Part shown: piece after piece, positions 8,480 through 51,594 of the stretch | Position numbering within the stretch: the stretch's first letter is position 1 | Layout of the letters: each line of letters begins with the position of its first letter | Source of the DNA: an uncultured Collinsella sp. | Lineage (GTDB): Bacteria; Actinomycetota; Coriobacteriia; Coriobacteriales; Coriobacteriaceae | DNA: 64,000 bases | Assembly (NCBI GenBank): GCA_900540835.1 | Contig: UQHN01000004.1 | Span: 165 to 64,164 of the forward strand | Direction: 5' to 3' | Notes under the pieces: generated by a model | Databases searched by the model: none | What the model was told of the DNA's origin: nothing | Seen by the model: only the letters and a program-made list of their open reading frames with translations | Made by a program: the position numbers and the translations under genes

Positions 8480-9796
8480 TTATCCTTTCCACCCCAATTG
8501 GGAATCCTCCGATGCGCCTTCGCACGCTCGCATGACCTCGATACCGTGCGAGCGTGCGAACTCGACGAGCTCTGCGTTGCGGGCGTTTATGGTGCCGAAG
8601 GCGGCGGGACACACGATAAGGCGCGCGCAGTGGACGAGGAGCTCTTTGGCGCGGGCTATGGTTCTATCCCCGATCGGCTCGAAGGCGCGCTCGGCCACGC
8701 ATTCCGCCGCCAGGTCGCGCGCGAGCTCGCAGTCGATGTCCCCTTCGTGCAGAACGCCCGTGTAGAACGCCTTGCCCTGCCGGATGAGCTGGCGAAACAC
8801 AGCCGACCCCGTACCTGCGCCGGCGATGACGAACGTGTGCGCATCGCCGTGCGGGCGTCCAATTTCCACGCTGCCGAAGCGCTCGTTGAAGGTGCCATGT
8901 TGAAGGCCGTAGAGCTCGCCAATCGTCTCGCGCGTGAATATGTCCTCGGGTGCGCCGGCGCGGAAGACCCGGCCGTCCTTCACGCAAATCACCTTGTCGG
9001 CGCTTTTCTGCGCGAGCTCGAGTTCGTGGATGGACATGATGACAGCCACATTCCGCGATTTCGCAAGGTGGCGAAGTATTCGCAGCAGGTCGATCTGGTA
9101 GCGGATATCGAGATATGACGTGGGCTCGTCGAGCACGAGCACACGCGGATCCTGCGCGATGGCGCGTGCGAGCATGACGCGCTGGCGTTGCCCGTCGCTT
9201 ATCTGCATGAAGTCGCGCTCGGCGAGCTCTTCCACATGTGCGGTTTTCATGGCCTCGTCGACCCGACTATGGTCGTCGGGCGAGAGTGTGCCCATTCGCC
9301 CGGTGTAGGGGTGCCTTCCCGCCTCTACGACATCGCGGCAGGTGAGGAGCTCGGTCCGGGGGCGATCTGTCAGCATAACGGCAAGGTTCCTTGCAAACTC
9401 CGCCGTCTTCCATCGGGAAATCTCCCGCCCGTCGAGCTCGACCGCGCCGGCAAGCGGTGCCAGATGGCGTGTGATGGTTTTCAAGATGGTCGACTTGCCC
9501 GAGCCGTTCGGCCCGATGAGCGCCACGACGTCGCCCGCGCGAACCTCCAGATCGACGCCTTCGACTACGACCTTCTTGTCGTAGCCCGCCGACAGGTCGC
9601 TTATGTGGAAAAGCGGCGCTCCGTCAGCCTGCGTTTCGACCGTAGTTTCGAGGTTCGGCTCCGCTCGGAGGAGGCGTTCCGCGCGCAGTTCCGCACGAGC
9701 CGAAAGTGCCTTCTGGCGCTTTCGTGCGAGCTCAGGACTGTCTAAGCATGGAATGTCCCCTTCGAGCGTTTTGGGCCGCGGCACGAATTCCCCCAT
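8480..9796 (-). CDS. ABC transporter ATP-binding protein (FecE/BtuD-like) with an extra ~125 aa C-terminal Rossmann-like domain
   Basis: Walker A GPNGSGKST, the LSGG-like region, and Walker B LVLDEPTSYLD. The C-terminal extension is FVIAGAGTGSAVF...CPAAFGT. Its start is adjacent to the permease stop, consistent with translational coupling. Confidence 0.85.
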   Translation of the reverse strand: MGEFVPRPKTLEGDIPCLDSPELARKRQKALSARAELRAERLLRAEPNLETTVETQADGAPLFHISDLSAGYDKKVVVEGVDLEVRAGDVVALIGPNGSGKSTILKTITRHLAPLAGAVELDGREISRWKTAEFARNLAVMLTDRPRTELLTCRDVVEAGRHPYTGRMGTLSPDDHSRVDEAMKTAHVEELAERDFMQISDGQRQRVMLARAIAQDPRVLVLDEPTSYLDIRYQIDLLRILRHLAKSRNVAVIMSIHELELAQKSADKVICVKDGRVFRAGAPEDIFTRETIGELYGLQHGTFNERFGSVEIGRPHGDAHTFVIAGAGTGSAVFRQLIRQGKAFYTGVLHEGDIDCELARDLAAECVAERAFEPIGDRTIARAKELLVHCARLIVCPAAFGTINARNAELVEFARSHGIEVMRACEGASEDSQLGWKG

Positions 9797-14260: not shown

Positions 14261-14482
14261 GGCGCCGCGCCGGTCATTTCCTTTTATCCGATTGTCATAT
14301 GCTCGTTGCCGAAACTTTTACTATGATAGTGGGCACTTGTGAACGTGTCAAAGCCAGCGCGGGCGGCATTGCGCCTCCTGCCTGCGTATTTGCGCCGATT
14401 GCTGCCGCAGGCGCCGTGTTTTGCCCGCTGCGCGAATGGCGGCGTAAACGGTTGCGATGAGAAACGGGAAGGGAAGGCTCGG

Positions 14483-15274: not shown

Positions 15275-15275
15275 C

Positions 15276-18276: not shown

Positions 18277-19019
18277 TGGGAAAGCTCTTCGTGGTGGGGA
18301 TTGGCCCGGGCGGCCCCGACGGCATGACGATTGCGGCTCGGCGCGCGCTCGAGGCGGCCGACATCGTTGTGGGGTACACGAAATACGTGGAGCTCGCGCT
18401 CGCCGCCGTGCCCGACGCGGCGCATCTCGCGACGCCGATGATGCACGAGGTCGAACGGTGCCGCCTGGCGCTTTCGCGCGCGCAGAGCGGAGAAGCCGTG
18501 GCGCTCGTGTGCAGCGGTGACGCGGGCGTGTACGGCATGGCGAGCCCCGTGCTGGAGCTTGCGGAGGACTACCCCGATGTAGACGTGGAAGTTATCGCCG
18601 GGGCCACCGCGGCTCAGAGCGGGTCGGCGGTGCTCGGCGCCCCGCTTGCCCACGATTTCGCGGTCGTGTCGCTCTCTGACCTGCTCACGCCGTGGGAGGT
18701 CATCGAGCGCAGGCTCGCCGCCGTGGCGAGCGCCGACTTCTGCATCTGTTTGTACAACCCGCGCAGCAGAAAGCGCGCCGACAGGCTCTCGCGCGCGGCG
18801 AAGATTATGCTCGAATGGAAGGCCCCCGACACGCTCTGCGGCTGGGTGCGCAATATCGGGCGCGAGGGGCAGCAGTCGGGTATGTGCAGGCTCTCCGAGC
18901 TGGGGGAGTTCGATGCAGACATGTTCACCACCGTGTTCGTCGGCAACGCGGACACGAAGCGCGTAGGCGGCCGTATGGTCACGCCGCGCGGGTATCGGGA
19001 GATTCCATGCGAAAGGTAA
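18273..19019 (+). CDS. cbiH: Cobalt-precorrin-3B C17-methyltransferase
   Basis: LFVVGIGPGGPDGMTIAARRALEAADIVVGY methylase motif. Confidence 0.9.
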   Translation: MMGKLFVVGIGPGGPDGMTIAARRALEAADIVVGYTKYVELALAAVPDAAHLATPMMHEVERCRLALSRAQSGEAVALVCSGDAGVYGMASPVLELAEDYPDVDVEVIAGATAAQSGSAVLGAPLAHDFAVVSLSDLLTPWEVIERRLAAVASADFCICLYNPRSRKRADRLSRAAKIMLEWKAPDTLCGWVRNIGREGQQSGMCRLSELGEFDADMFTTVFVGNADTKRVGGRMVTPRGYREIPCER

Positions 19020-20479
19020 CGATCATCGGGGCGGGGCCCGGAAACCCCGACTTGCTCTCGCGCGCGGCGCTCGACGCGATCGACATCGCCGACGTGGTCA
19101 TCGGCGCTCATCGCGCACTTGTCGGCATCGACGTGCCGCCCGACGTGGTGAGATGCGAGCTCGTTAAGACGGCGGACATCGTCGCCGCGCTCACCGATGC
19201 GGCGTCGTGGCAGCGCGCCGTGGTCGTGATGACGGGCGATGTGGGGCTGTTCAGCGGCGCGCGCCGCCTGGTGGAGGCGCTCTCCGGCGACGCGCAGGTG
19301 GACGTGCGCGTCATTCCCGGCATAAGCTCAGCGTCGTATCTCGCCGCGCGCCTCGCGCGTCCATGGCAGGATTGGCGCTTCGTGAGCGCTCACGGCGTGG
19401 CGTGCGACATCGTGGCCGAGGCCGAGCGCGCAGGTGAGCTCTTCCTCGCCACGTCGGGCGGGGAAGACCCCTCGCGGCTTTCGGGCGAGCTTGTGCAGGC
19501 GGGCTTCGAGGACGCGCGCGTGACGGTGGCCGAGCGCCTGTCGTACCCCGACGAGCGCATCACCTGCGCGACCGCAAGTGAAATCGCAGGTCAGACGTTC
19601 GACGACTTGAACGTGATGCTTATCGAGTTCGCAGGCTGCGCCGGGTCGCCTGCGAACTCTAGTGCAGCCTCCGAGGCGCCGGCTGGCGCATCTGCGCCCG
19701 CGGCGGCTTCTTTCGTGGCGGACTCTGCGGGCGCATTCCACGCCGCGAGCCCCCGCTGGCCGTACGCTTCCTCGGGCATTCCCGACGAGCTCTTCATCCG
19801 CGGCGACGTTCCCATGACCAAGCAGGAGGTGCGCGCCGTCGCGCTCGCGAAGCTGCGCCTTACCGCGACCGACACCGTGTGGGATGTCGGCGCCGGCACG
19901 GGGAGCGTGTCGATCGAGGCGGCGCTCGTCGCGCGAGCGGGGTCGGTATGGGCGGTCGAGCGCAACGCGGCCGGCGTGCGGCTCATCCGAGAGAACGCGG
20001 ATGCATTCGGGTGCGGCAACGTGCATGCGGTCCCCGGTGTCGCCCCCGAAGCGCTCGCGAAACTGCCCGACCCCGACGCCGTGTTCGTCGGCGGGAGCGC
20101 GGGCGAGCTTCCCTCCATCGTGGAGGCGGCGCTCGAGAAGAACTCGCAGGTTCGCCTGTGCGTGCCATGCGTCACCGTTGAGACGCTCACCGAGGCGTGC
20201 GCGCTCCTCTCGGGTTCGCGCTTTAAGGAGTTCGAGGCGTGCCAGGTGTCGGCCGCCCGTGCCGAGGCTGTAGGCTCGCACCATCTTATGAAGGCGCAAA
20301 ACCCCGTGTTCCTCGTCAGCGCGCGTGGTGCGGGCGCGGATGCCGAGGAGCTTGCCGAAGTCGGCGCGCTTGCTGAGTCGCCTGTCGGGGAGGACCTCTC
20401 TGTCGAGGGGAACCCATCCGTTGAGGTGGTCTCGCTTGCTAACTGCAGCGCCGCAGGTGGGGAAGGCGGCGCCCGGTGA
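19007..20479 (+). CDS. cbiET: Cobalt-precorrin-6B/7 methyltransferase fusion CbiE::CbiT (CobL-like)
   Basis: N-terminal VTIIGAGPGNPDLL (CbiE) is joined by an Ala/Ser-rich linker to CbiT (VWDVGAGTGSVSIEAAL), with a low-complexity C-tail. ATG 19007 overlaps the cbiH stop. Confidence 0.85.
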   Translation: MRKVTIIGAGPGNPDLLSRAALDAIDIADVVIGAHRALVGIDVPPDVVRCELVKTADIVAALTDAASWQRAVVVMTGDVGLFSGARRLVEALSGDAQVDVRVIPGISSASYLAARLARPWQDWRFVSAHGVACDIVAEAERAGELFLATSGGEDPSRLSGELVQAGFEDARVTVAERLSYPDERITCATASEIAGQTFDDLNVMLIEFAGCAGSPANSSAASEAPAGASAPAAASFVADSAGAFHAASPRWPYASSGIPDELFIRGDVPMTKQEVRAVALAKLRLTATDTVWDVGAGTGSVSIEAALVARAGSVWAVERNAAGVRLIRENADAFGCGNVHAVPGVAPEALAKLPDPDAVFVGGSAGELPSIVEAALEKNSQVRLCVPCVTVETLTEACALLSGSRFKEFEACQVSAARAEAVGSHHLMKAQNPVFLVSARGAGADAEELAEVGALAESPVGEDLSVEGNPSVEVVSLANCSAAGGEGGAR

Positions 20480-21858
20480 GCACGTCCATCCCGCGCTTCA
20501 TGGTCGCTGCGCCCTCGAGCGGGAGCGGCAAGACGGTCGTAACGTGCGCGCTCCTGCGCGCGCTCGCGCACCGCGGCATTGCATGTGCGGCCTTCAAATG
20601 CGGCCCCGACTACATTGACCCGCTCTTTCATCGCCGCGTCGTGGGTGCGCGCTCGGGCAATTTAGACGGCTTCTTCACCGACGCCCCGACGCTGCGCGCC
20701 CTGCTCGCACGCGGCGCCGCGGGCGCGGATGTCGCGGTGCTCGAGGGGGTTATGGGCTTCTACGACGGCATGGCGCCCGGCGTGGCCGACGCGAGCAGCT
20801 ACCAGGTTGCGCGCGACACGGAAACGCCGGTCGTTTTAGTGGTGAACGGGCGCGGGGCGTCTTTATCGCTCGCCGCTGTAATCCACGGCATCGCCGAGTT
20901 CCTGCCTTGTGCGAACGTGCGCGGCGTCGTGCTGAACAAGACGAGCGCCGCTGCCTGCGCCTACGCGGCGCCTGCGATCGAGAAGCACACGGGCGTCGCG
21001 GTTTTGGGGAATATCCCCGCCGACGAGGCGTTCTCGCTCGAAAGCCGGCATCTGGGGCTTGTGACCGCCGACGAGGTCGAGCAGCTCTCCGCGCGCATCG
21101 ACAAGATGGCCGAGCTGGTGGAAAAGAGCATCGACGTCGACCGCTTGCTCGAAATAGCGGCGACGGCACCCGATATCCGCGAGGAACCTTACCGGTTGGA
21201 GCCGATCGCGGGAGCGCGGCCCATCGTCGCCGTCGCGCGTGACGAGGCGTTCTCGTTCTACTACGAGGAGAATCTGCGCGCGCTCGAGGACCTGGGTTGC
21301 GAGCTGGCCTTTTTCAGCCCCCTGTGTGATGGCGAGTTGCCCCGGGGGACAAGCGCCCTCTATCTGGGGGGCGGCTACCCGGAGCTCCATGCGCGGCAGC
21401 TCTCCGAGAACGTGTCGATGCGCGGGGCGGTGCGGCGCGCTGTGGAATCCGGCATGCCGACGGTCGCCGAATGCGGTGGGTTTCTGTACCTGCAGCGCGA
21501 AATCGCCGATAGCGAGGGGTGGCGCTGGCCTGTTGCGGGCGCCCTTGAGGGCGCAAGCGAGAACGGGGGAAGGCTGTCCCATTTCGGGTACGTGGAGCTC
21601 ACTTCCCAACGCGACGGGCTCTACGGGCCGCGCGGCACACGCATCCGCGCGCACGAGTTCCACTACTGGCAGTCCACCTGCCCGGGCGGCGACTTTTGGG
21701 CGCAGAAGCCCCGGCGCGACAAGGGCTGGCCGTGCATGACGACCACCCCGTCCCTGGTGGCGGGCTTCCCGCATGTGTACTATCCTGCGAACCCCGACGT
21801 TGCGCGCGCGTTCGCGTCTGCCGCAGCGTCGTTCACAGAGAGGAGGCGGCATGGCTGA
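20476..21858 (+). CDS. cbiA: Cobyrinate a,c-diamide synthase
   Basis: P-loop VAAPSSGSGKTVVTCALLRAL, a DPLFH motif and a C-terminal glutamine amidotransferase region. GTG 20476 overlaps the upstream stop. Confidence 0.9.
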   Translation: MSTSIPRFMVAAPSSGSGKTVVTCALLRALAHRGIACAAFKCGPDYIDPLFHRRVVGARSGNLDGFFTDAPTLRALLARGAAGADVAVLEGVMGFYDGMAPGVADASSYQVARDTETPVVLVVNGRGASLSLAAVIHGIAEFLPCANVRGVVLNKTSAAACAYAAPAIEKHTGVAVLGNIPADEAFSLESRHLGLVTADEVEQLSARIDKMAELVEKSIDVDRLLEIAATAPDIREEPYRLEPIAGARPIVAVARDEAFSFYYEENLRALEDLGCELAFFSPLCDGELPRGTSALYLGGGYPELHARQLSENVSMRGAVRRAVESGMPTVAECGGFLYLQREIADSEGWRWPVAGALEGASENGGRLSHFGYVELTSQRDGLYGPRGTRIRAHEFHYWQSTCPGGDFWAQKPRRDKGWPCMTTTPSLVAGFPHVYYPANPDVARAFASAAASFTERRRHG

Positions 21859-22993
21859 AGCAACCGAAACCGCGCTTGCCTGCATCCGCGAGGAAGTCGA
21901 GCGCGCGTTCTCGTCGGCGCCGGGCGCCGTGCTCGAAGCCGCGCTTTCCCGGATCGCGCCCGCAGACGAATGCGCCCGTACCGCCGCGTACGCCGCGTGG
22001 GACTCCATCGCGCACCCCTTGGGGGGATTGGGCGACTTTGAAGACGCCGTCGCGTGTATCGCCGCAGCTCAGGGGAGCGCCGAGGTGGCCGAGTTTCCCC
22101 GTGCGCTCGCGGTATTCTTCTCCGACAACGGGGTCGTTGCCGAAGGCGTGTCGCAAAGCGGGCAAGATGTGACGCGAGCCGTCGCGCGCAACATGTGCGA
22201 GGGGGCCGCGAGCGCCTGCCGCATGGCGGCGTTCGCGAGTGCCGAGGTCGTGCCCGTCGACGTGGGTATGGCCCGGGGCATAGAAGACGCGCGCATGGTG
22301 CGCGCGAACGTGCGGCGGGGGAGCGGCAACATCGCTCTCGGCTCCGCTATGTCTCGCGATGGGGCCGTGCGCGCGATCGAGGTCGGAATCGCCGTCGCGT
22401 GCGGGCTTGCCCGCGCCGGCGTGCGCCTTCTCGCCGCGGGCGAGATGGGCATCGGCAACACGACCACCTCGGCGGCGGTGGCCGCAGTGCTCATCCGGGC
22501 GGACGCGCGGAGCCTTGTCGGGCGCGGCGCGGGGCTCTCGGACGCCTCGCTCGCGCGCAAGCGCGACGTGGTCGAGCGCGCTATCGACGCGAACTCGCCC
22601 GATCCCGCCGACCCGATCGACGTGCTCTCGAAGGTGGGCGGCTTCGACATCGCTGCGATGTGCGGCTTCTACCTGGGGGCCGCGGTCTCGAAGGCGCCGG
22701 CGCTCCTCGACGGGGTCATATCCTGCACGGCGGCCCTGTGCGCGGCGCGCCTGTGCCCCAACGCCTTGGGCTACCTCGTGGGCACCCACGCATCAAGCGA
22801 ACCCGCAAGCCGGGAGCTCCTTCGTGAGCTCGGCATAAAGGCGCCCCTCGACGCAGGCATGCACTTGGGCGAGGGCGCGGGCGCCATGGCGTATCTCCCC
22901 CTTCTGGATTCGGCGCTGCGCGTGTACCGGGATGGGAAGACGTTCACGGCGACTGGCATGGCTGCTTACGAGCATTTCGAGGCCGGGAAATGA
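21851..22993 (+). CDS. cobT: Nicotinate-nucleotide--dimethylbenzimidazole phosphoribosyltransferase
   Basis: CobT signature GEMGIGNTTTSAAV; RBS aggagg before ATG 21851. Confidence 0.9.
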   Translation: MAEATETALACIREEVERAFSSAPGAVLEAALSRIAPADECARTAAYAAWDSIAHPLGGLGDFEDAVACIAAAQGSAEVAEFPRALAVFFSDNGVVAEGVSQSGQDVTRAVARNMCEGAASACRMAAFASAEVVPVDVGMARGIEDARMVRANVRRGSGNIALGSAMSRDGAVRAIEVGIAVACGLARAGVRLLAAGEMGIGNTTTSAAVAAVLIRADARSLVGRGAGLSDASLARKRDVVERAIDANSPDPADPIDVLSKVGGFDIAAMCGFYLGAAVSKAPALLDGVISCTAALCAARLCPNALGYLVGTHASSEPASRELLRELGIKAPLDAGMHLGEGAGAMAYLPLLDSALRVYRDGKTFTATGMAAYEHFEAGK

Positions 22994-23538
22994 CGGTGAC
23001 GCTCGTCATCGGCGCCGCCGCGAGCGGCAAGAGCGCCTACGCCGAGTCCCTGTGCCTCGGGCACGACGGCCCTCGCGTGTACCTGGCAACGATGGAGCCC
23101 TTCGGGGAAGAGGGCGCCCGCCGCATCGCGCGCCATCGGGCGCTGCGCGAGGGCAAGGGGTTTTCCACCCTCGAGCGAACGCGTGACGTGGGCGCCGCAG
23201 TGCCCGGGCTTCCGCGCGGCTGCACGCTTCTTTTGGAGGACGTGGGCAACCTGGTTGCGAACGAGCTTTTCGCGGAAGGCGGCTTGTCCCCACGTGACCC
23301 CGACGCTGCGGCGCGCGAGGTGCTCGGAGGCATTGAACGGCTCGCTCAGGCCGCTGCGTATACGGTGGTGGTCACCGTCGACGTGTTCGCCGATGAGATG
23401 CGCTACGATGAGGGGACCGAGGCATGGAGGCGCGCGCTCGCGCGCGTGAACGCGGGCGTGGCGGCGCTGGCCGACCGCGCAGTCGAAGTGGTATGCGGGA
23501 TTCCCGTGTGGATGAAAGGTGAAGGACCTACAAGGTGA
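22990..23538 (+). CDS. cobU: Adenosylcobinamide kinase / adenosylcobinamide-phosphate guanylyltransferase
   Basis: P-loop VIGAAASGKSAYAE; 182 aa, the typical CobU size. Confidence 0.85.
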   Translation: MTVTLVIGAAASGKSAYAESLCLGHDGPRVYLATMEPFGEEGARRIARHRALREGKGFSTLERTRDVGAAVPGLPRGCTLLLEDVGNLVANELFAEGGLSPRDPDAAAREVLGGIERLAQAAAYTVVVTVDVFADEMRYDEGTEAWRRALARVNAGVAALADRAVEVVCGIPVWMKGEGPTR

Positions 23539-24302
23539 AGATAGCAGAGGCAATCGGCGCGGCGTTCGGAACGTTCTCGCGCATCCCCGTCCCGAAATCG
23601 GCCTGGACCGATTTCGGGTCAACCCATGCGCTTGCCGCGTTTCCCCTGGTGGGCCTTGCGGAAGGGTTCCTCATGACGGCGTGGGGACACGTTGCGAACC
23701 TGCTCGGCGTGCCCGCGACCATCGTCGCGGCCGTGCTCGTGGCGCTGCCTGTAGCGGTGACGGGAGGCATCCACCTAGACGGGCTCTGCGACACCTCCGA
23801 TGCGCTTGCAAGTTGGGCCCCGCGCGAGCGAAAGCTCGAGATCATGCACGACCCGCGGGCGGGCGCCTTCGGGGTCATCGGTGTTGTTGTGTACCTTATT
23901 CTGCAGTTTTCCCTGTTCACCGCGCTGCCGCTTACGGCGGGGGCGTTCCTCGCGCTTCTGTGCTCGCTCGTGTTCTCCCGCGCGCTTTCGGGACTCGCCG
24001 TTGAATGCTGGCCTGCCGCGCGGGCGGACGGCATGGCCGCGGGGCTCTCGCCTGCGAAGAAGCGCGCGGCGATCGTCGTGCCGCTTTGCGCTTTCGCTGC
24101 GGCTTCGGCTGCAGGGATGGTCGCGTGCGCTCAGGCTGTCGGCGCCCTTATGGCGGTGGCGGGGCTTTTGGCGCTCGCGTGGTACCGCCATGTTGCCCTG
24201 TCCCGCTTCGGCGGGGTGACGGGGGATTTGGCCGGATGGTTTCTGCAATGGGCCGAGCTCGCGATGCTTGCCATGCTGGTGGCGGGGGGCATGCTCCTAT
24301 GA
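23535..24302 (+). CDS. cobS: Adenosylcobinamide-GDP ribazoletransferase (cobalamin synthase)
   Basis: Polytopic membrane protein; the N-terminus FGTFSRIPVP and DGLCDTSDAL motif are typical of CobS. Confidence 0.85.
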   Translation: MKIAEAIGAAFGTFSRIPVPKSAWTDFGSTHALAAFPLVGLAEGFLMTAWGHVANLLGVPATIVAAVLVALPVAVTGGIHLDGLCDTSDALASWAPRERKLEIMHDPRAGAFGVIGVVVYLILQFSLFTALPLTAGAFLALLCSLVFSRALSGLAVECWPAARADGMAAGLSPAKKRAAIVVPLCAFAAASAAGMVACAQAVGALMAVAGLLALAWYRHVALSRFGGVTGDLAGWFLQWAELAMLAMLVAGGMLL

Positions 24303-25300
24303 TGCTCGTGGTAGGTGGCGCGCATTCGGGGAAGAGGACCTTCGTGCGTGAAAAGCTCGGGTTCGCGGCGGACGATTTCGTCGACGCGGCGCAGCTTGCG
24401 GAGGGCGGCGTGCCCGCGGCTTTTGCCGGCCGCGTCGCATACCGTGCTGAGGAACTCGTACGCGCGCTCGACGCTGACCGGGCGCTCGAGCGGCTGATCG
24501 GCTTCGACGCAGTGATTCTGCCCTTGGTCGGCTCGGGGGTCGTCCCCATGCGTGCGGAAGACGCCCAATGGCGCGAGCGCGCGGGGCGCCTGGGATGCGC
24601 GCTCGCTGCGCGCGCCGACGTCGTCGTGCGCATGACGTGCGGGATTCCCCAGGTCATCAAAGGAAACCTTGCCGATGCGCCTCGAGGGACGCAGGGCGCG
24701 GGTGCGCCTTTGGAAGTCGTCTTCGTGCGCCATGGTGCCACGGCGGGCACGGAAGACCATCGCTACAGCGGGGCGGGCACCGACGAGCCCCTGTCGATTG
24801 CGGGCGAGCGCGCTTTGCGCGACCTCGCGTGCGATCGTGACGTGTTCCGTGTTATCACGAGCGGCATGGTCCGCACCGACCAGACGGCGCGCATCCTCTT
24901 CCCGAATGCGGAGCTTATGGCGTGCCCCGGTCTGCGCGAGATGGATTTCGGCGACTTCGAGGGGCGAAGCGCCGCCGAGCTTAAAGAGGATGCGCGCTAT
25001 CGCGCCTGGGTAGACTCCTGGTGCGAGACGCGCTGCCCGCATGGCGAGGACAAGAGCGATTTCACCCGCCGCGTCGTCGCGGCGTTTCGGGAGGCGTGCA
25101 AATCGGAGCGCGCCCAGGGGAGCGGGCGCGCCGTCTTCGTCGTTCACGCGGGTACCGTGAAAGCGCTGCTCTCCGAGCTAGCTGTCCCGAAAATGGGATA
25201 CTTCGACGTGCATACCGAGCCGGGCGGCGCATGGGCCGCCACTTGGGATGGGCGCTGCCTTCGCGACGTTCGCCCCGCTTCGGGGGGCGATGCCCGGTGA
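24299..25300 (+). CDS. cobC: Fusion of a truncated CobU-like P-loop domain with alpha-ribazole-5'-phosphate phosphatase (CobC, histidine phosphatase family)
   Basis: The N-terminal ~130 aa (VVGGAHSGKRTFV ... RMTCGIPQVIKGN) align to the full CobU encoded upstream. The C-terminal half has the RHG motif (VVFVRHGATAGT) of the phosphoglycerate-mutase-like family. Confidence 0.75.
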   Translation: MMLVVGGAHSGKRTFVREKLGFAADDFVDAAQLAEGGVPAAFAGRVAYRAEELVRALDADRALERLIGFDAVILPLVGSGVVPMRAEDAQWRERAGRLGCALAARADVVVRMTCGIPQVIKGNLADAPRGTQGAGAPLEVVFVRHGATAGTEDHRYSGAGTDEPLSIAGERALRDLACDRDVFRVITSGMVRTDQTARILFPNAELMACPGLREMDFGDFEGRSAAELKEDARYRAWVDSWCETRCPHGEDKSDFTRRVVAAFREACKSERAQGSGRAVFVVHAGTVKALLSELAVPKMGYFDVHTEPGGAWAATWDGRCLRDVRPASGGDAR

Positions 25301-26274
25301 TGACGATTCTTGCCATCGCCGCCGGGTTCGCGGCCGACCTTGCCTTCGGCGACCCGCGCTGGCTTCCCCATCCCGTCGTCGCCATGGGGCGCGCGATCAC
25401 GTGGGCCGAAGGCCGCCTGCGGGGCGCATTCCCGCAAACGTCCGCGGGTACGCGCGCCGCAGGGCTTGTGCTCGCCGTGGCGCTTCCGCTTGCGTGTGGG
25501 CTTTTGACCTGGGGAATCCTGCATCTTTGCGGCATGGTTCACTCCGGCTTGCGCTTCGTGGCCGAGGCATGGGCGAGCTATCAGATTCTCGCGGCATGCG
25601 AGCTGCGCCGCCAGAGCCTGGCCGTTGCCCGCGCGTTCTCGAAGGGCGGACTTGTCGCGGCGCGCGAAGCCGTCGGGCTCATCGTGGGACGTGACACGTC
25701 TGTTCTCGACGAGCAGGGTGTCGCGCGCGCCGCCGTGGAAACGGTGGCGGAGAACGCGAGCGACGGTGTCATCGCGCCGCTTTTCTACCTTATGATTGGG
25801 GGTGCGCCCTTGGGCATGGCGTACAAGGCGGTGAACACGCTCGACAGCATGGTGGGCTACAAAAACGAGCGCTACATCGACTTCGGCTGCGCCTCGGCGC
25901 GCCTCGACGATGCGGTGAACTGGATTCCCTCGCGGTTATCGGCCCTGTTCATGATCGCCGTGTGCCCGATCGTCGGGCTCGACGCGCGCGGGGCGGCGCG
26001 CATCTGGCGCCGCGACAGGCGTCGCCATGCGAGCCCGAACGCGGCGCAGACCGAGTCGGCGTGCGCGGGTGCGCTCGGACTGCGCCTGGCAGGACCCGCG
26101 GTGTATTTCGGTAAGCTCGTTGAGAAACCGACGATAGGCGACGCGTCCCGCGAAATCGAGTGGGGCGACATCGCCCGGGCGACAAGGCTCATGCTCGCCG
26201 CGTCCGTATGCGCGCTCGTCGTCTTCGGCGCCGCGCGTGCGGCGGTCGTACTCGCCGTGGGGGCGATGGCATGA
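25300..26274 (+). CDS. cbiB: Adenosylcobinamide-phosphate synthase
   Basis: Membrane protein beginning MTILAIAAGFAADLAFGDPRWLPHPV, the canonical CbiB/CobD N-terminus. Confidence 0.85.
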   Translation: MTILAIAAGFAADLAFGDPRWLPHPVVAMGRAITWAEGRLRGAFPQTSAGTRAAGLVLAVALPLACGLLTWGILHLCGMVHSGLRFVAEAWASYQILAACELRRQSLAVARAFSKGGLVAAREAVGLIVGRDTSVLDEQGVARAAVETVAENASDGVIAPLFYLMIGGAPLGMAYKAVNTLDSMVGYKNERYIDFGCASARLDDAVNWIPSRLSALFMIAVCPIVGLDARGAARIWRRDRRRHASPNAAQTESACAGALGLRLAGPAVYFGKLVEKPTIGDASREIEWGDIARATRLMLAASVCALVVFGAARAAVVLAVGAMA

Positions 26275-27494
26275 GGAAAGACCACGCCGCGCCCCGGGCT
26301 GCCGGGGGAATCCTGCGCGCCCGCACGCATGGGGGCAGCGCGCAATCGCTCGGCATCGCTTGCGAAGGGGGTGCCTCCGACCTCATTGACTTCTCGGTGA
26401 ACGTGAATCCGGCAGGCCCCTCGCCGCGCGCCGTCGCCGCAGCTTGCAAGGCGCTTTCTCGAATCGACGCCTACCCCGATAGGGAAAGCCTCGCCCTCGT
26501 TCGCGCGCTAGCGCGCGACCAGGGCATTCCCGAAGATACTATCGTCTGCGGCGCGGGCGCGTCCGACATCATCTGGCGGCTCGCAGCGGCGGTGCGCCCG
26601 AAACGCATCGTCGTGTGCGCGCCGACGTTCTCTGAATATGCTGAGGCGGCATCGTACTACGGCGCATGCGTGCAGGAGTTCCCGCTCTCTGAAGCGGACG
26701 ACTTCGACGTGCCCGCCTCCTTCGCCCGCGCGATCGAGGGGCCGGGAGACGTGGCGTACCTCTGCAATCCGAACAACCCGACGGGGCGCCTCGTCGACCC
26801 CAGCGTGATCGAGGCCGCGGCTTGCCGCTGCGAGCAGGTGGGCGCGCTGCTTGTCGTGGACGAGTGCTTCCTCGGATTTGCGCCCGACGCCCGCGAAAGG
26901 AGCGTGGCCGCACGCGCCGCGTGTTCGCGCCATGTGGCCGTGCTCTCCGCGTTCACCAAGCTCTACGGAATGGCGGGGTTGCGGTTGGGATATCTGATCA
27001 GCGGAAACGCCCAACTCATCGAGGGGATTCGCCGGGCGGGGCAGGCGTGGCCCGTCTCCTCGGTCGCCGAGGCCGCGGGCATCGCCGCCCTGGAAGACGT
27101 TGAATACGTCTCGCGCACGCGCGACGTATTGGCGGGCGAGCGAGCGTGGCTTTCCCACGAGCTCTCCTCGCTCGGGCTTTCCGTCGTGCCGTCGGATACG
27201 AACTTCCTTTTAGTCCGCACGCCGGCGAAAGACATCCCCGAGCGCCTGTATAATCAGGGTGTTTTGGTCCGCACGTGCGACTCGTTTTCGGTACTGTCCC
27301 GTTTCTGGTGCCGCGTCGCGGTGCGCACGCACAGGGAGAACGCCCGGCTTGCGATGGCGTTCAGCCGCGCGCTTCGGGCGGAAGGTGCATCGGGCGAAGG
27401 CGAACCCGACGAACGGGGCGGCGCTTCTTGCGGCGGCGCTATGGCGGGCGCGGATGGCCGAGGCTCGGCGAAGGAGGTCGATACCCGTGGGTAG
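26271..27494 (+). CDS. cobD: L-threonine-O-3-phosphate decarboxylase (class I/II aminotransferase fold)
   Basis: PLP aminotransferase-like, with IDFSVNVNPAGPSP and SAFTKLYGMAGLRLGY (lysine-PLP region); carries an acidic low-complexity C-tail. Confidence 0.8.
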   Translation: MRKDHAAPRAAGGILRARTHGGSAQSLGIACEGGASDLIDFSVNVNPAGPSPRAVAAACKALSRIDAYPDRESLALVRALARDQGIPEDTIVCGAGASDIIWRLAAAVRPKRIVVCAPTFSEYAEAASYYGACVQEFPLSEADDFDVPASFARAIEGPGDVAYLCNPNNPTGRLVDPSVIEAAACRCEQVGALLVVDECFLGFAPDARERSVAARAACSRHVAVLSAFTKLYGMAGLRLGYLISGNAQLIEGIRRAGQAWPVSSVAEAAGIAALEDVEYVSRTRDVLAGERAWLSHELSSLGLSVVPSDTNFLLVRTPAKDIPERLYNQGVLVRTCDSFSVLSRFWCRVAVRTHRENARLAMAFSRALRAEGASGEGEPDERGGASCGGAMAGADGRGSAKEVDTRG

Positions 27495-28986
27495 GGCCAA
27501 GCCCATCATGATCCAGGGCACCATGTCGAACGCGGGGAAGAGCCTGCTTGCGGCTGGGCTGTGCCGCGTACTTTCGCAGGACGGCTTGCGCGTGACTCCC
27601 TTCAAGAGCCAGAACATGGCACTCAACAGTGGTGTCACGGCCGACGGGCTCGAGATGGGGCGCGCCCAGATCATGCAGGCCGAGGCGTGCGGCATCGCGC
27701 CCGACGTGCGCATGAACCCCATCCTGCTCAAGCCCGAAAGCGGCCACCGAAGCCAGCTCATCGTGGCCGGCAAGGCGCAGGGAGCCTTCGCTGCGAGGGA
27801 CTACTTCGCGCGAAAGAAGGCGCTCATGCCGCAGATTCTGGAGGCGTTCGATTCGCTCGCGGAGGAAAACGACGTCATCGTCATCGAGGGCGCCGGCAGC
27901 CCCGCCGAAATCAACCTTGCCGAAAACGACATCGTCAACATGGGGCTCGCGCGCGCCGTGTCCTCCCCCGTGCTGCTTGCGGGCGACATCGACCCGGGCG
28001 GGGTATTTGCCCAGCTCTACGGCACGGTCGCGCTCCTTGCGCCCGAGGACCGCGCGCTTTTGCGGGGGCTTATGGTGAACAAGTTCCGCGGCGATGTGGA
28101 AATCCTGCGCCCGGGTTTGGCCCCGCTCGAGAAGATGTGCGGGGTTCCCGTCGTGGGGGTCGTGCCGTATCTTACGCTCGACCTGGACGACGAGGACTCG
28201 CTCGCGCCGCGCCTATCTGCCCGCGAGGCGCGCGGCGTCATCGACGTCGCCGTCGTGCGTCTTCCGCATCTGTCGAACTTCACCGACTTCGACCCGCTTT
28301 CGCGCGTGCCCGGCGTGGGCGTGCGCTACGTTTCCTCGACGACCGATCTGGGCCGACCCGACCTGGTGGTGCTTCCCGGCTCGAAGACCACGCTCGACGA
28401 CGCGCGCTGGCTTGCGGCTAGCGGCATCGGGGCCTGTGTACGCGCGCTTTCGGGCGCGGGCACGCCGGTGCTCGGCATATGCGGTGGCTACCAGCTTTTG
28501 GGAGACGAGCTTTCCGACCCGCACGGCAGGGAAGGCGCTGGCACCGCGCGCGGGCTCGGGCTCATCCCTGCAAGTACGGTGTTCAAGGAGGAAAAGCGCC
28601 TCGCCCAGTCGGCACTGCGCATCACGGGCGCCCAAGGCGCGTTCTCGGTGTGGAACGGCATGACGGCGCGCGGGTACGAGATTCACGACGGCGAAACGAC
28701 CGTCTCCTGCGCCCCTGTGGGCACGATTGGCGGCAAACCAGAAGGCGCGGCCTGCGGAAACGTGTTCGGAACCTATCTCCACGGCCTGTTCGACGAACCG
28801 GGGGTTGCGCTCGCCCTCGCGCGCTCGCTCGCGCGCATGCGCGGCCTGCCCGAGAGCGTCGTGGGTGCTGCGGGCGCGGCGTCCGCGGCCGATCACCGTG
28901 CGCGCGAGTTTGACCGCCTGGCCGACGTCGTGCGCGGGGCGCTCGACATGGAGTATGTCTACCGCATTATCGAGGAGGGCGTATGA
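27487..28986 (+). CDS. cobQ: Cobyric acid synthase
   Basis: IMIQGTMSNAGKSLLAAGLCRVL P-loop plus a C-terminal GATase domain. The start is GTG 27487 or ATG 27508. Confidence 0.85.
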   Translation: MGRAKPIMIQGTMSNAGKSLLAAGLCRVLSQDGLRVTPFKSQNMALNSGVTADGLEMGRAQIMQAEACGIAPDVRMNPILLKPESGHRSQLIVAGKAQGAFAARDYFARKKALMPQILEAFDSLAEENDVIVIEGAGSPAEINLAENDIVNMGLARAVSSPVLLAGDIDPGGVFAQLYGTVALLAPEDRALLRGLMVNKFRGDVEILRPGLAPLEKMCGVPVVGVVPYLTLDLDDEDSLAPRLSAREARGVIDVAVVRLPHLSNFTDFDPLSRVPGVGVRYVSSTTDLGRPDLVVLPGSKTTLDDARWLAASGIGACVRALSGAGTPVLGICGGYQLLGDELSDPHGREGAGTARGLGLIPASTVFKEEKRLAQSALRITGAQGAFSVWNGMTARGYEIHDGETTVSCAPVGTIGGKPEGAACGNVFGTYLHGLFDEPGVALALARSLARMRGLPESVVGAAGAASAADHRAREFDRLADVVRGALDMEYVYRIIEEGV

Positions 28987-29498
28987 TCCACGTGTATCAT
29001 GGCGACGGCAAAGGCAAGACCACGGCGGCGATGGGCCTCGCCCTTCGCATGCTCGCTGCAGGCCGCCGCGTCGTCGTCGTGCAGTTCCTGAAAGACGGCG
29101 AAAGCGGGGAGGTGCGCCTGCTCGCTGAGCATTTCGGCGTGCCCGTGTTCGCGGGGAAGGCGTCGGACAAGTTTACCTGGTCGATGACGTCGGAAGAACT
29201 TGCCGCGACGTGCGAGCTGCACGATGGGAACCTCGCTTCCGCGCTCGCCGAGCTCGAGGGCGCGCAAGAGGGACTGCTCGTGCTCGACGAGGCGCTCGAC
29301 GCGCTTTCGAAGGGGCTTGTCGACGAGGCGCTCGTGGACCGCGCGCTCGATATGTCCGCGCGCGGCGTCGAAGTAGCGCTCACCGGGCGCGCGCCTTCCC
29401 GCAAGATCGTGGAGAAGGCCGACTACATAACCGAGATGCGGTGCGAGAAACACCCCTACTCTCAGGGGATATGTGCAAGGGAAGGAGTGGAGTACTAG
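28983..29498 (+). CDS. cobO: Cob(I)yrinic acid a,c-diamide adenosyltransferase
   Basis: MIHVYHGDGKGKTTAAMGLALR P-loop, typical of the CobA/CobO/BtuR family. Confidence 0.85.
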   Translation: MIHVYHGDGKGKTTAAMGLALRMLAAGRRVVVVQFLKDGESGEVRLLAEHFGVPVFAGKASDKFTWSMTSEELAATCELHDGNLASALAELEGAQEGLLVLDEALDALSKGLVDEALVDRALDMSARGVEVALTGRAPSRKIVEKADYITEMRCEKHPYSQGICAREGVEY

Positions 29499-30140
29499 AT
29501 GGATTCCAAGGAGATGGCGCCCGGCGACATCGAGCGGCGCAGCTTCGAGATCATCACCGAAGAGCTCGGCGGCCGCACGTTCCTGCCGCTCGAAGAGCCC
29601 GTCGTGAAGCGCGTCATCCACACCACTGCCGACTTCTCGTACGCCGATTCTCTCGTGTTCACCCATGACGCCGCGCACTGTGCGCTCGACGCACTGCGCG
29701 CAGGGGCCACGGTGCTCACCGACACGAACATGGCGCTCGCAGGCATAAGCAAGCCCGCGCTCGCGAAGCTCGGCTGCAAGGCCGTGTGCTTCATGGCCGA
29801 CCCTGATGTCGCCGCGGCTGCGCGCGCCGCGGGCACGACTCGCGCCGTTGCGAGCATGGACAAAGCTTGCGGCATCGAGGGTCCGCTCATCGTGGCCGTC
29901 GGCAACGCTCCCACAGCACTTCTGCGCCTCGCCGAGCTCATGGACGTGGGGAAGATCGCGCCCGCGCTCGTCGTTGGGGTGCCGGTCGGGTTTGTGAACG
30001 TGGTCGAGGCGAAAGAGGAGCTACTCGCGCGACGCGTGCCGGCCATCGTCGCGAGGGGTCGCAAGGGCGGCTCGACCGTGGCGGCTGCCATTATGAACGC
30101 GCTGCTCTACCAGATCACGCGCCCAGGCGGCCCGAAGTGA
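29499..30140 (+). CDS. cbiC: Cobalt-precorrin-8 methylmutase
   Basis: VIHTTADFSYADSL motif of CbiC/CobH; RBS ggaaggag. Confidence 0.85.
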   Translation: MDSKEMAPGDIERRSFEIITEELGGRTFLPLEEPVVKRVIHTTADFSYADSLVFTHDAAHCALDALRAGATVLTDTNMALAGISKPALAKLGCKAVCFMADPDVAAAARAAGTTRAVASMDKACGIEGPLIVAVGNAPTALLRLAELMDVGKIAPALVVGVPVGFVNVVEAKEELLARRVPAIVARGRKGGSTVAAAIMNALLYQITRPGGPK

Positions 30141-38181: not shown

Positions 38182-38303
38182 GTCCCGAGGGGCGGGGCAT
38201 AAGGTCGCCTGCTCGGACAGTCCTGACTCGCACGGAGAGCACATTAAGTGCTCTCCGGCTCGTGCGGAACTCGCGATCGACCTTATGCCCCGCCCCTCGG
38301 GAC
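38182..38303. repeat. Structured intergenic element, family 1 copy 1: 26-bp perfect outer stem enclosing a conserved ~55-nt core
   Basis: GTCCCGAGGGGCGGGGCATAAGGTCG ... CGACCTTATGCCCCGCCCCTCGGGAC flank the core CTCGCACGGAGAGCACATTAAGTGCTCTCCGGCTCGTGCGGAACT. A second copy lies at 44657-44790. Confidence 0.8.
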
Positions 38304-38469
38304 TAAGGATACATGGTAGAGGCGCTCGTGCTGCAAAATTCATGAGCTGGTGACCTATTCTGCGTCCCAGGTCGGCTCATCTTCACCACCGGTTAATAAA
38401 AAAGAGGTACCGGTTGGTCCGGTACCTCTTTTGGTGCGTTTCGATTTGGCTGTAGCTTTTGCCGCTAGC

Positions 38470-39750
<1,281 letters not shown>

Positions 39751-39858
39751 GATTGTCCTTTCAAAAACGTGTCCCGGCGACCGTTACCATTCCGCCGGGC
39801 TCTCTATGCAAGGGCACATCATAGCGCGTAAATCAAACATTCACACCCTTTCCGCACC

Positions 39859-39991
39859 TACTCATTGGGGACAGACTTAATTACTCATTGGGGACAGACT
39901 TAAATGACCAGTCTTAAACCAAGAATGTCCCCAATGACTACAACGACTGGTCATTTAAGTCTGTCCCCAATGAGTAGTCCCCAATGAGTGG
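39859..39991. repeat. Palindromic repeat array in the divergent metK-gltX intergenic region
   Basis: 22-nt direct tandem TACTCATTGGGGACAGACTTAA x2. A 31-bp perfect inverted repeat ACTCATTGGGGACAGACTTAAATGACCAGTC / GACTGGTCATTTAAGTCTGTCCCCAATGAGT surrounds a 31-nt loop. In total there are 5 copies of the half-site TCATTGGGGACA or its complement. Confidence 0.85.
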
Positions 39992-40074
39992 GTCGGTGCC
40001 CTTTGTGCGGAGGTGGGCATTGTTGCTTTATACTGGTGCGGTTAGACATCCATCCTGCAATCGAGGAGATTTCC

Positions 40075-41550
40075 ATGGCATCAGACGTTCGCGTCCGCTT
40101 TGCACCCTCACCGACGGGCAAGCTGCACATCGGCGGCGCCCGCACCGCTATCTATAACTGGGCTTTCGCCCGTGCTAACGGCGGCACGTTCATCCTGCGC
40201 ATTGACGACACCGATCCCACCCGCTCTACCGACGAGAACACGCAGATCATCCTGCGCGCCATGCGTTGGCTGGGCCTGGACTGGGACGAGGGTCCCGAGG
40301 TGGGCGGAGACTTTGGCCCCTATGCCCAGACCGAGCGCCTGGACCTGTACAAGCAGGCCGCCCAGAAACTTTGGGACGAGGGCAAGGCCTATCCCTGCTT
40401 CTGCACCAAGGAGCAGCTCGACGCCGACCGCAAGGCCGCGCAGGAGCGCAAGGACCCCTTCCAGGGCTATCAGCGTCGTTGCCGCGATCTTGATCCCGAG
40501 GAGGCCCGCCGCCGCATCGAGGCCGGCGAGTCCTACGTCCTGCGCATCAAGGTGCCCGAGGACCGCGGCGACGTCGTCATCCACGATGCCGTCCACGGCG
40601 AGGTGACCTTCGACGCCAAGGAGCTCGACGACTTTGTCATCTTCCGCTCCGATGGCACGCCCACGTACAACTTCGCGACCGTCGTCGACGACGCCATGAT
40701 GAAGATCACCCATGTCATCCGCGGCGACGACCACCTGTCCAACACCCCGCGCCAGGTCATGGTCTACGAGGCCCTCGGCGCGCCCGTGCCCACGTTCGCC
40801 CACATCTCCATGATCCTGGGCGCCGACGGTAAGAAGCTCTCCAAGCGCCACGGCGCAACTTCGGTGGAGGAGTACCGCGACGCCGGTTACCTTTCCGACG
40901 CCTTCGTCAACTACCTGGCGCTGCTCGGCTGGTCGCTCGACGGCGAGACCACGATCATCCCGCGCGATGTCCTAGCCAGCAAGTTCTCGCTCGACCGCAT
41001 CTCCAAGAACCCGGCGACCTTCGATCCCAAGAAGCTCGATTGGGTCAATGCCGAGTACATCAACGGCATGTCCGACGCGCAGTTTGCCGATGAGATCATG
41101 GTCCCCAAGCTGCACGAGGCGGGTCTCATCGAGGGCAACGTCGAGTACGGCGAGGACTGGATTGATGCGCTTGCCGCCATCGTCAAGCCGCGCACCAAGA
41201 TGCCGACCGACGCCGTGACCGTCGCCGCTCCCATCTTCGCTACGGCCGAGACGCTCGAGTATGACGTGAAATCCGTTAACAAGGGCCTGGCTAAGGAAGG
41301 CATGGGCGCCATTCTGGATGCCGCCAAGGCTGCGCTCGAGGGCGTGGACAAGTGGACTGCCGAGGCCATCGACGCCGCGCTTGAGCCGCTGCCCGAGCAG
41401 ATGGACCTCAAGAAGCGCGTGGTGTTCCAGGCCGTGCGCGTCGCCGTCTGCGGCAACATGGTGAGCCCTCCGCTGGGCGAGACCATGGCGCTCGTCGGCC
41501 GCGACGACTGCCTGGCGCGCATCGACCGCGCCCGCACGATGGCGCTGTAG
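40075..41550 (+). CDS. gltX: Glutamate--tRNA ligase
   Basis: HIGH motif RFAPSPTGKLHIGGARTA and KMSKS-region LSKRHGATSV. The start is internal ATG 40075; the ORF track opens at 39988. Confidence 0.9.
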   Translation: MASDVRVRFAPSPTGKLHIGGARTAIYNWAFARANGGTFILRIDDTDPTRSTDENTQIILRAMRWLGLDWDEGPEVGGDFGPYAQTERLDLYKQAAQKLWDEGKAYPCFCTKEQLDADRKAAQERKDPFQGYQRRCRDLDPEEARRRIEAGESYVLRIKVPEDRGDVVIHDAVHGEVTFDAKELDDFVIFRSDGTPTYNFATVVDDAMMKITHVIRGDDHLSNTPRQVMVYEALGAPVPTFAHISMILGADGKKLSKRHGATSVEEYRDAGYLSDAFVNYLALLGWSLDGETTIIPRDVLASKFSLDRISKNPATFDPKKLDWVNAEYINGMSDAQFADEIMVPKLHEAGLIEGNVEYGEDWIDALAAIVKPRTKMPTDAVTVAAPIFATAETLEYDVKSVNKGLAKEGMGAILDAAKAALEGVDKWTAEAIDAALEPLPEQMDLKKRVVFQAVRVAVCGNMVSPPLGETMALVGRDDCLARIDRARTMAL

Positions 41551-44647: not shown

Positions 44648-44656
44648 GTCCCACCG

Positions 44657-44790
44657 TCCCCTTCCGCCGCAGGGCTTAGGTTTTGCTCCATGCTCAAACA
44701 GTCCTGCTCGCACGAAGAGCACATTAAGTGCTCTTCGGCTCGTGCGGAACTGCGCGTGGAGCAAAACCTAAGCCCTGCGGCGGAAGGGGA
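44657..44790. repeat. Structured intergenic element, family 1 copy 2: 34-bp perfect outer stem enclosing the same conserved core
   Basis: TCCCCTTCCGCCGCAGGGCTTAGGTTTTGCTCCA ... TGGAGCAAAACCTAAGCCCTGCGGCGGAAGGGGA flank CTCGCACGAAGAGCACATTAAGTGCTCTTCGGCTCGTGCGGAACT. The inner hairpin shows a compensatory G-C to A-T change relative to copy 1. Confidence 0.8.
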
Positions 44791-45008
44791 CTGCGTTTTC
44801 GTGCTCCTTTTCGCCCGGGTGCCGTCGGGCCAGGGAAGGGCGTCTTCGCTGATAATTGCTTTGTTGGAAGAGTCGCTTTTATTGCGGCTCTTTCTTTGGT
44901 TTTGGGTATATTTGTTCTTGTTGAAATGTTATTGCGGATGGGCTGGTGATTTGGCTTTCCGCTGCTCTTTGTAGCCGTCTCGGCTTTGGTTGAGGGGAGA
45001 TGTCCTTT

Positions 45009-47373: not shown

Positions 47374-47416
47374 GCTACTTTGTGCCTCTTCGATCCGTTC
47401 GCCATGAAATGCGGTT

Positions 47417-47544
47417 ATTTACTACGTTAAACCGGCTGTCCTCATCCATGCCGAATTTTGTGAAATCAAAACCGCAGGTAGACGGCTTGCCGTTTTTGCA
47501 AATACGCTGCTATGCTCGACCAATACGGGTCAAACGTAGTAAAT
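47417..47544. repeat. Intergenic repeat element, family 2 copy A (~128 nt, terminal inverted repeat plus conserved core)
   Basis: Terminal inverted repeat ATTTACTACGTT / AACGTAGTAAAT. The core AAAACCGCAGGTAGACGGCTTGCC sits ~40 nt in. GC is lower than the surroundings. Confidence 0.7.
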
Positions 47545-47603
47545 GGGCCGCTTTCGTGGCGCAACTCCAGAGTAGTCAATTTGGGAGCGGGGCTACTTGC
47601 CTG

Positions 47604-51225: not shown

Positions 51226-51430
51226 AGTACGGTCCAGTTCTATACAGTCATGGCCAACGGGCCATGGGCTAAACGCACAGTACTTAAGTATATCGTTGCA
51301 CTTTAGTTGTATAAACTACAGCCGCTCATTATCGGCGAACGGTTGTCCTAGAAAATCGTTTTACCATCCACATTATCGCGATACTCGAAAACGCCTATGT
51401 AGATAGTATTTGTAGCCAAACAAAACAGCT

Positions 51431-51564
51431 CCGGTTTACTACGACGAATTGAATGATCTCAACCACAGTCATTTTAGTGATATTAAAACTGCAGGTAGAA
51501 GCGTTGCCAATTTCGATGATTACTCGCCGTGGTCGGCCGGAGCCATTTTGTCGTAGTAAACCGG
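51431..51564. repeat. Intergenic repeat element, family 2 copy B
   Basis: Terminal inverted repeat CCGGTTTACTACGAC / GTCGTAGTAAACCGG. The core AAAACTGCAGGTAGAAGCGTTGCC sits at the same offset as in copy A, and total length is the same. Confidence 0.7.
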
Positions 51565-51594
51565 CCCTCTTTTTAATGCGGGGTTCAACCAAGA

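Follow-up and report, generated by a model that had tools for sequence, protein, structure and literature searches.

Palindromic intergenic repeats of Collinsella with a conserved centre and site-specific arms that appear to be rewritten at the DNA level

The window analysed here, a 64,000-nt stretch of DNA from an uncultured Collinsella sp., contains in its metK–sdaA spacer a long palindrome whose conserved centre recurs, between arms of unrelated sequence, in the def–fmt spacer. This arrangement raises the question of what keeps such arms complementary while their sequence changes from site to site: selection on a structured RNA, a role in transcription termination, recognition of a DNA site, or a process acting on the DNA itself. 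A preliminary description of the locus had reported perfect outer arms of 26 bp (copy 1) and 34 bp (copy 2), unrelated between the copies, and an inverted-repeat check returned the same arms. Covariance model R1 was built from the family, with 119 copies aligned; the copies in the window, their R1 scores and their parts are as follows.

38182..38303, plus strand: copy 1, whole element, in the metK–sdaA spacer (R1, 123.9 bits)
38182..38207, plus strand: copy 1 left arm, 26-bp perfect partner of 38278-38303, with a site-specific sequence
38208..38277, plus strand: copy 1 conserved core, between the two arms
38278..38303, plus strand: copy 1 right arm, pairing with 38182-38207
44656..44791, plus strand: copy 2, whole element, in the def–fmt spacer (R1, 107.3 bits)
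44656..44689, plus strand: copy 2 left arm, 34-bp perfect partner of 44758-44791
44758..44791, plus strand: copy 2 right arm, pairing with 44656-44689
9662..9768, minus strand: copy 3, degenerate (R1, 61.9 bits)

A 45-nt core pattern matches the window exactly twice, at 38227-38271 and 44707-44751, both on the plus strand, where shuffled sequences lead one to expect no match. The original count of two copies is thus correct for exact cores but leaves out the third, degenerate copy on the minus strand, and copy 2, which had been placed at 44657-44790, is a genuine element whose true span is one base wider on each side. The core of copy 1 runs from a junction loop (CCTGCTCGGACAGTCCTGACT) through helix P2 (CGCACG/CGTGCG) and the apical helix P3 (GAGAGCAC/GTGCTCTC, with the loop ATTAA) to the 3' bulge CGGCT and the junction GAACTCGCGAT. 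Copy 3 has the junction loops and P2 of copies 1 and 2, whereas its apical hairpin differs (GAAAGCGCC-AGAA-GGCACTTTC) and its arms have decayed to 12 bp. Copies 1 and 2 had been said to differ in the core by a single compensatory change; inside the 45-nt motif a compensated pair (G/C versus A/T) is indeed the sole difference, but just outside it the copies are also separated by a 1-nt indel (CTGACTCG versus CTGCTCG), and their junction loops differ too. Pairing extends beyond the perfect arms, reaching 31 nt at 94% in copy 1 and 41 nt at 95% in copy 2, and each strand of both copies forms a single long rod in RNA as well as in DNA folding. In RNA folding, the two strands of copy 1 reached −92.6 and −94.2 kcal/mol and those of copy 2 −114.5 and −115.5 kcal/mol (z between −11 and −17.5); DNA folding of the two copies gave z of −11 and −15.

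That these copies might represent a wider family was borne out. An exact-pattern scan of one genome per species returned at least 120 loci, which fall at 20 or more distinct sites across many Collinsella genomes, and among the matches listed (at least 120 contigs) almost all carriers of the core are Collinsella. The elements measure about 110-150 bp, with a core of about 65-70 nt and near-perfect inverted-repeat arms of 20-45 bp. The copies were sorted into 20 or more site classes, with about 32 arm alleles; every class has its own arms, which have only a general plan in common, the outer part being G+C-rich and the inner part A+T-richer (CATAAGGTCG, TAAAGTTT or TTGGTTTTCG). At least 12 copies lie in a 0.9-Mb C. 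aerofaciens record, of which 150 kb of sequence was examined. The core region has no match in phage and viral collections, and this, together with the common layout of the arms, led us to discard captured foreign 'spacers' as the origin of the arms. Rfam 15 holds no family for the element and finds only two tRNAs in the window; at E ≤ 10 the element matches only a plant miRNA precursor, spuriously (27.7 bits, the gathering score being 142). A literature search turned up no paper on the element, and its loop sequence does not occur in the 200 files searched out of the 408 supplementary files of a human-microbiome structured-RNA catalogue. We conclude that the Collinsella palindromic repeat family is real and undescribed.

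The labels of two records that carry copies deserve a remark. NZ_OY725717.1 (loci L128-L131), named 'Collinsella aerofaciens plasmid 6', is 899,693 bp long, has recA, ftsK, pnp and ribosomal protein genes, and is evidently chromosomal. A 4-kb contig labelled Methanobrevibacter smithii (CAVHBE010000073.1, locus L033) contains a typical Collinsella copy whose flanks match a Collinsella class (L006, L012); judged by its sequence, its assignment is probably a binning error.

Covariation in the stems had been taken as the classic signature of a selected RNA. The covariation itself is clear from the 119 aligned copies: 97.8% of cells are paired, compared with 70% in shuffles and 28-47% with slid partners; all 18 modelled arm pairs vary on both sides and use all four Watson–Crick types; and P3 is 99.8% paired, with six of its eight pairs covarying. 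Its character, however, is at odds with the RNA signature. Double changes account for 688 cells against about 14 one-sided ones, G-U pairs make up about 1.5% of arm cells and are no commoner than true mismatches, mismatch types have no strand bias (46 G.T versus 37 A.C), and changes come in blocks. The features generally expected of a selected RNA, namely G-U intermediates, wobble confined to one strand and a fixed orientation, were not found, six to eight site classes being antisense. Strict Watson–Crick pairing could alternatively stem from a need for perfect double-stranded RNA.

Orthologous copies differ by mirrored blocks, in some cases with a change in length (classes 0, 3, 4 and 14). 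In class 0, GGGGAGGGCAAATAT is replaced by GCCGCCGGGCGGCAGACAT and the opposite arm carries the exact complement, and indels in the arms are likewise mirrored on both sides. At the def–fmt site, close relatives with def genes about 92% identical have different arms, while the outermost GTCCCC/GGGGAC and the flanks are identical. At locus L038, what was GGCGAGGAGCCCC in the left flank now reads GTGCGGGAGCCCC, complementary to the right flank in the other species, and the palindrome is longer. The pnp-site element has a left arm that overlaps the pnp terminator (its 3' half and T-tail) and a right arm that repeats this sequence in inverted form, AATAGCAAAAGGGC; in other species the site holds the terminator alone. 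Taken together, the mirrored blocks, the flank conversion and the terminator-copying arm point to hairpin-templated symmetrisation at the DNA level rather than to classical RNA covariation. We propose that intrastrand template switching or hairpin-templated repair in replication (quasipalindrome correction) may maintain and extend the arms; their outer parts would be inverted copies of local flanking DNA. The palindrome itself can grow outward as one flank is converted into the complement of the other. The 'covariation' of the arms is best explained by such a DNA mechanism and not by RNA selection. On balance, we lean towards regarding the elements as Collinsella-specific non-coding palindromic intergenic repeats with a conserved asymmetric centre and site-specific arms that are rewritten at the DNA level; they would be a REP/MITE-like family, akin to REP/REPIN, ERIC or Correia-type elements but with the architecture reversed.

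The sdaA site itself has two arm alleles. In L100 (7400-7470) and L121 (2010-2070), a partial extra left arm and a duplicated flank (…CCCGTCGTCCCGAGGGGCGGGGCATA then …CCCGCCGTTCCGAGGGCTTTGG…) were observed at this site ahead of a copy that carries the other arm allele, and together they look like the footprint of an arm replacement.

The position of the elements bears on a different account, in which they are cis-acting structured RNAs in mRNA untranslated regions, or processed small RNAs, whose apical domain binds a protein while the basal stem need merely be paired; such an RNA would act on the upstream gene by controlling the stability of its 3' end, its processing or its read-through. The stop codon of a co-oriented gene precedes the element by 5-46 nt in about 13 of 21 site classes, and in several classes a canonical terminator follows 30-75 nt downstream, so that most copies precede the real terminator and would be transcribed. 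Several head-to-head pairs, 100-300 nt apart, are found behind facing or adjacent genes, and these pairs, along with the sense bias (about 13 versus six to eight site classes), fit a role at the RNA level at least as well. Conserved loops and bulges that adjoin covarying helices, and a core more conserved than the adjoining coding sequence, also favour an RNA. In these very variable helices, however, G-U pairs and one-sided intermediates are almost absent and mismatches lack a strand bias, and RNA helices do not evolve by flank conversions or by block and indel changes mirrored in both arms. In six to eight site classes the element runs antisense to the genes around it, as do copy 1, the rplJ leader site and a second copy in the pnp–rnj spacer, and the genes upstream of elements (pnp, def, uvrD, manA, an SDR, a peptidase and others) are unrelated and have no common function. 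Moreover, the two strands fold equally well, Rfam has no matching family, and one copy, located inside an ORF (copy 3, see below), is dispensable. The structured-RNA account is therefore possible, yet we consider it fairly improbable.

More specific RNA functions were considered and rejected. A recoding signal of the SECIS or PYLIS type is not indicated, as the stop codons beside the elements (TAG, TAA, rarely TGA) match the genomic background of 46/44/10%. A hammerhead-like core (CUGA...GAAC around P2) was dismissed because the CUGANGA box is not conserved (CTGCTCG, CTGACTCG, CTGGCTCG) and no Rfam ribozyme matches.

For the gene context of copies 1 and 2, neighbouring genes were named by Pfam, and the following features were placed around the copies.

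38400..38432, minus strand: metK intrinsic terminator, a 14-bp perfect hairpin between A and T runs, located between metK and copy 1
38470-39750, minus strand: metK (Pfam)
44866..44904, plus strand (also placed at 44866-44894): canonical intrinsic terminator with a stem of 11 bp and a T-tract, 75 nt 3' of copy 2 and before fmt

Both copies had been placed at gene 3' ends, and a terminator had been among the roles suggested. The placement holds for copy 2, which lies in sense orientation 9 nt past the def stop codon in the 352-nt def–fmt spacer (window 44648-44999), but not for copy 1, which lies beyond metK's own terminator, about 100 nt from it and about 20 nt before the start codon of sdaA, itself on the minus strand. 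Copy 1 is thus situated in the sdaA leader/promoter region, with its core antisense to metK and sdaA. No promoter-like site was found in either copy, and the reading as an internal promoter was dropped. Neither copy is followed by a T-tract or scored as terminator-like, and since a canonical terminator lies 75 nt beyond copy 2, copy 2 is not itself the terminator of def. A family of terminators or insulators, in the manner of the long 'I-shaped' hairpins without a U-tract proposed for some Actinobacteria, would account for very stable G+C-rich hairpins straight after stop codons and for paired copies that face each other behind adjacent genes. The canonical hairpin-plus-T terminators that lie 30-75 nt downstream of the element in several classes, or before it at metK and pnp, argue against this role, for which a conserved 65-nt core would also be superfluous; furthermore, one copy lies within an ORF that needs read-through. 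We judge termination to be a highly improbable function of the family.

The 352-nt def–fmt spacer, which consists of the element, the canonical terminator and an A+T-rich stretch, is confined to the C. aerofaciens clade. In other, more distant Collinsella species, def and fmt lie 2-32 nt apart without the element, and from this comparison of sequences the def–fmt operon appears to have been split at the copy 2 spacer in the C. aerofaciens clade. The pnp–rnj spacer measures 654 nt in C. aerofaciens versus 113-230 nt, without the element, in more distant Collinsella. The absence of both the def–fmt and the pnp–rnj elements from distant species indicates that the family expanded in the C. aerofaciens clade.

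Further features of the window were also noted. The metK–gltX block (window 38470-41550) is inverted relative to more distant Collinsella (loci L123-L126), where the gene order is sdaA–gltX–metK–priA versus sdaA–metK–gltX–priA in the window, and one breakpoint of the inversion coincides with the spacer that houses copy 1. The divergent metK–gltX spacer (39858-39977) holds an unrelated repeat cluster, with a 32-bp perfect inverted repeat (TACTCATTGGGGACAGACTTAAATGACCAGTC) and extra direct and inverted copies of TACTCATTGGGGACAGACTT. Imperfect inverted repeats at 47400-47561 and 51422-51573 (74-83% complementary, with arms of about 30-34 nt about 93 nt apart) have the motif GGTTTACTACG in common and may belong to another repeat family. 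The G+C content is 0.67-0.69 at positions 14001-30000 versus about 0.57-0.64 elsewhere in the window.

The core and the arms evolve at different rates. At orthologous sites, the pairwise diversity of the core is 0-0.015, compared with 0.03-0.08 for the coding flank beside it, 0.04-0.19 for the arms and 0.09-0.33 for the spacer downstream; the core, 5-20 times less variable than neighbouring coding DNA, is therefore the most constrained sequence of its neighbourhood, whereas the arms change at or above the flanking rate yet stay Watson–Crick complementary. The core exists as a few discrete variants, all of which retain the loop CAC-ATTAA-GTG together with the junction motifs ACAGTCCTG and GTGCGGAAC. 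The apical helix occurs as GGAGAGCAC, GAAGAGCAC, GGAAAGCAC, GGAGGCCAC and GAAGGCCAC, and P2 as CGCACG/CGTGCG, CACGA/TCGTG and GCGCAA/TTGCG. Conservation beyond that of neighbouring coding DNA is hard to square with purely selfish DNA and suggests a host-level or enzyme-recognition role. The core may persist through sequence-specific recognition by a protein or enzyme, or through periodic homogenisation by gene conversion.

Such constraint brings into consideration a DNA site for a sequence- and structure-specific protein, either an HUH or tyrosine recombinase or transposase acting on a folded single strand, or a nucleoid or replication protein, with arms whose sole task would be to make the core extrude in hairpin or cruciform form. 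The invariant core, including its loop and its asymmetric bulges, which recall the extrahelical bases of folded attC, favours such a site, as does the strictly Watson–Crick pairing. Rearrangements at the copies point the same way. At the pnp site, the core module is exchanged between L001 and L130 while the arms are unchanged, and at L106 and L067 the copies are chimeric, with non-complementary arms; recombination, which the preliminary description had raised as a possibility, is therefore observed, and some copies flank rearrangements. In the shortened, derived def–fmt allele, the centre is exactly inverted in L002 relative to L045, L121 and L122; within the family-1 site classes, no orientation flip was found in up to 22 genomes per class. 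On the other hand, no recombinase or transposase gene lies consistently near the copies, and a tblastn search of 1.18 Mb of Collinsella DNA with an approximate E. coli YafM (RAYT) query gave a single weak and spurious match, antisense to an aminotransferase gene. The element was not found in viral or phage collections, its ends have neither a target duplication nor a conserved cleavage motif, and its orientation tracks the neighbouring gene instead of one replication direction; replication direction as the setter of orientation was in fact rejected, being contradicted by the head-to-head pairs 100-300 nt apart. A dedicated DNA site of this kind is thus doubtful in our assessment.

It is the dispersed distribution by itself that suggests mobility of the family. 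There is no empty site among the 120 matches listed. The def–fmt and pnp–rnj spacers of distant species, which lack these elements, are unalignable, so that insertion boundaries are unreadable there. No direct repeats indicative of target-site duplication were seen at the palindrome ends across site classes, and neither a transposase or RAYT partner nor an unambiguous pre-insertion empty site was found in the Collinsella sequence examined. A filled and an empty state can be compared at copy 3, which lies in frame in the annotated 5' end of an ABC ATPase ORF (8480-9796, minus strand), 28 nt past the stop codon of a FecCD permease gene. In the 438-aa protein 'MULTISPECIES: ABC transporter ATP-binding protein [Collinsella]', copy 3 is translated as 32 N-terminal residues (GGDIPCLDSPELARKRQKALSARAELRAERLL); as copy 3 and the ABC domain are not separated by any in-frame start codon (ATG, GTG or TTG), these repeat-encoded residues may really be translated. 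Some close relatives have an ABC ATPase of 406 or 412 aa and lack exactly 96 nt at the copy 3 site. Alignment of the filled and empty DNA revealed two junctions, one keeping the left-arm version and the other the right-arm version, which implies that every deletion took the core and one arm. No target duplication was found at this site, and since the site is filled in more distant relatives too, secondary deletion is the simplest origin of the empty alleles.

Returning to the favoured reading, that of palindromic repeats whose arms are rewritten at the DNA level, the position of most copies between the stop codon and the true terminator, a transcribed stretch, makes a very stable mRNA 3' UTR hairpin their likely effect. 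Such a hairpin would act as an exonuclease barrier or as an RNase III substrate. The likeliest candidates for a function, both unproven, are this 3' UTR hairpin and a protein-recognised site. A bolder proposal is that the core is the active part of a mobile or self-propagating DNA hairpin of a new type: a candidate enzyme would read the folded single strand, and the element would install itself next to gene ends, build its site-specific arms by duplicating the target flank in inverted orientation and keep them perfect by hairpin-templated synthesis. We put this forward tentatively, as an unlikely possibility, and a new protein-binding 3'-UTR RNA module has about equal standing with it. If the mobile hairpin were true, its mode of insertion and maintenance would be new to bacterial repeats.

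Collinsella is an abundant genus of the human gut, and with about 12 copies per megabase beside housekeeping genes (def, pnp, uvrD, sdaA and the rplJ leader, among others), the elements are likely to influence mRNA ends and genome rearrangement. Such strong conservation of the core implies a recognition partner. As a natural case in which perfect complementarity and 'compensatory' change would come from a mutational process at the DNA level, the family is a caution for covariation-based RNA discovery, and it offers a system in which quasipalindrome template switching and palindrome growth can be studied in real populations.

Among known systems, intrinsic terminators, including the mycobacterial TRIT-type repeats, resemble the Collinsella family as stable G+C-rich hairpins downstream of genes; in contrast to them, the family has no U-tract, its stems are much longer, and a separate canonical terminator is usually close. 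Integron attC sites are hairpins of 60-140 nt in which the paired sequence varies while the structure and the unpaired bases are kept, and they stand in fixed orientation right after a stop codon. However, attC sites have conserved outer R''/R' boxes, a variable centre and cassette arrays beside intI, whereas the Collinsella family has variable ends, a conserved centre and housekeeping neighbours: its outer ends, for example GTCCCGAGG or GTCCCCTTCC, vary between sites and do not show the R''/R' consensus (RYYYAAC ... GTTRRRY), and its neighbours include def, fmt, sdaA, pnp, uvrD and manA.

REP/REPIN sequences and their RAYT partners offer a further parallel. They too are short, non-coding, multi-copy intergenic palindromes, often 3' of genes or between facing genes, with long hairpins, complementary stems and long persistence at orthologous sites. 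In Enterobacteria and Pseudomonas, however, these repeats have conserved arms with a 5' GTAG-type motif and a variable loop, whereas in the Collinsella family the centre alone is conserved and the arms are site-specific, with about 32 alleles. MITE-like repeats (Correia/CREE, ERIC/IRU, RUP, BOX, bcr1) share with the family a length of 100-150 bp, the lack of an ORF, a dispersed intergenic distribution, co-transcribed stable hairpins, presence/absence polymorphism and recombination between copies. Unlike them, the Collinsella family has neither common terminal inverted repeats nor target-site duplication, and its sole filled/empty comparison resembles hairpin deletion and not excision or insertion. 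The arm ends differ at every site in all classes, which upholds the earlier argument that the element is not a simple MITE with shared terminal inverted repeats.

Finally, quasipalindrome template switching is known as a mutational mechanism at single laboratory reporter sites; the model is reportedly due to Ripley, and the process is said to have been studied in E. coli by Lovett and colleagues. To our knowledge, it has never been described as the force that shapes an entire natural family of repeats with a conserved core. As in the Collinsella arms, it accounts for simultaneous complementary changes of several bases, for the correction of imperfect inverted repeats, and for the outward growth of a palindrome by copying of the opposite flank.
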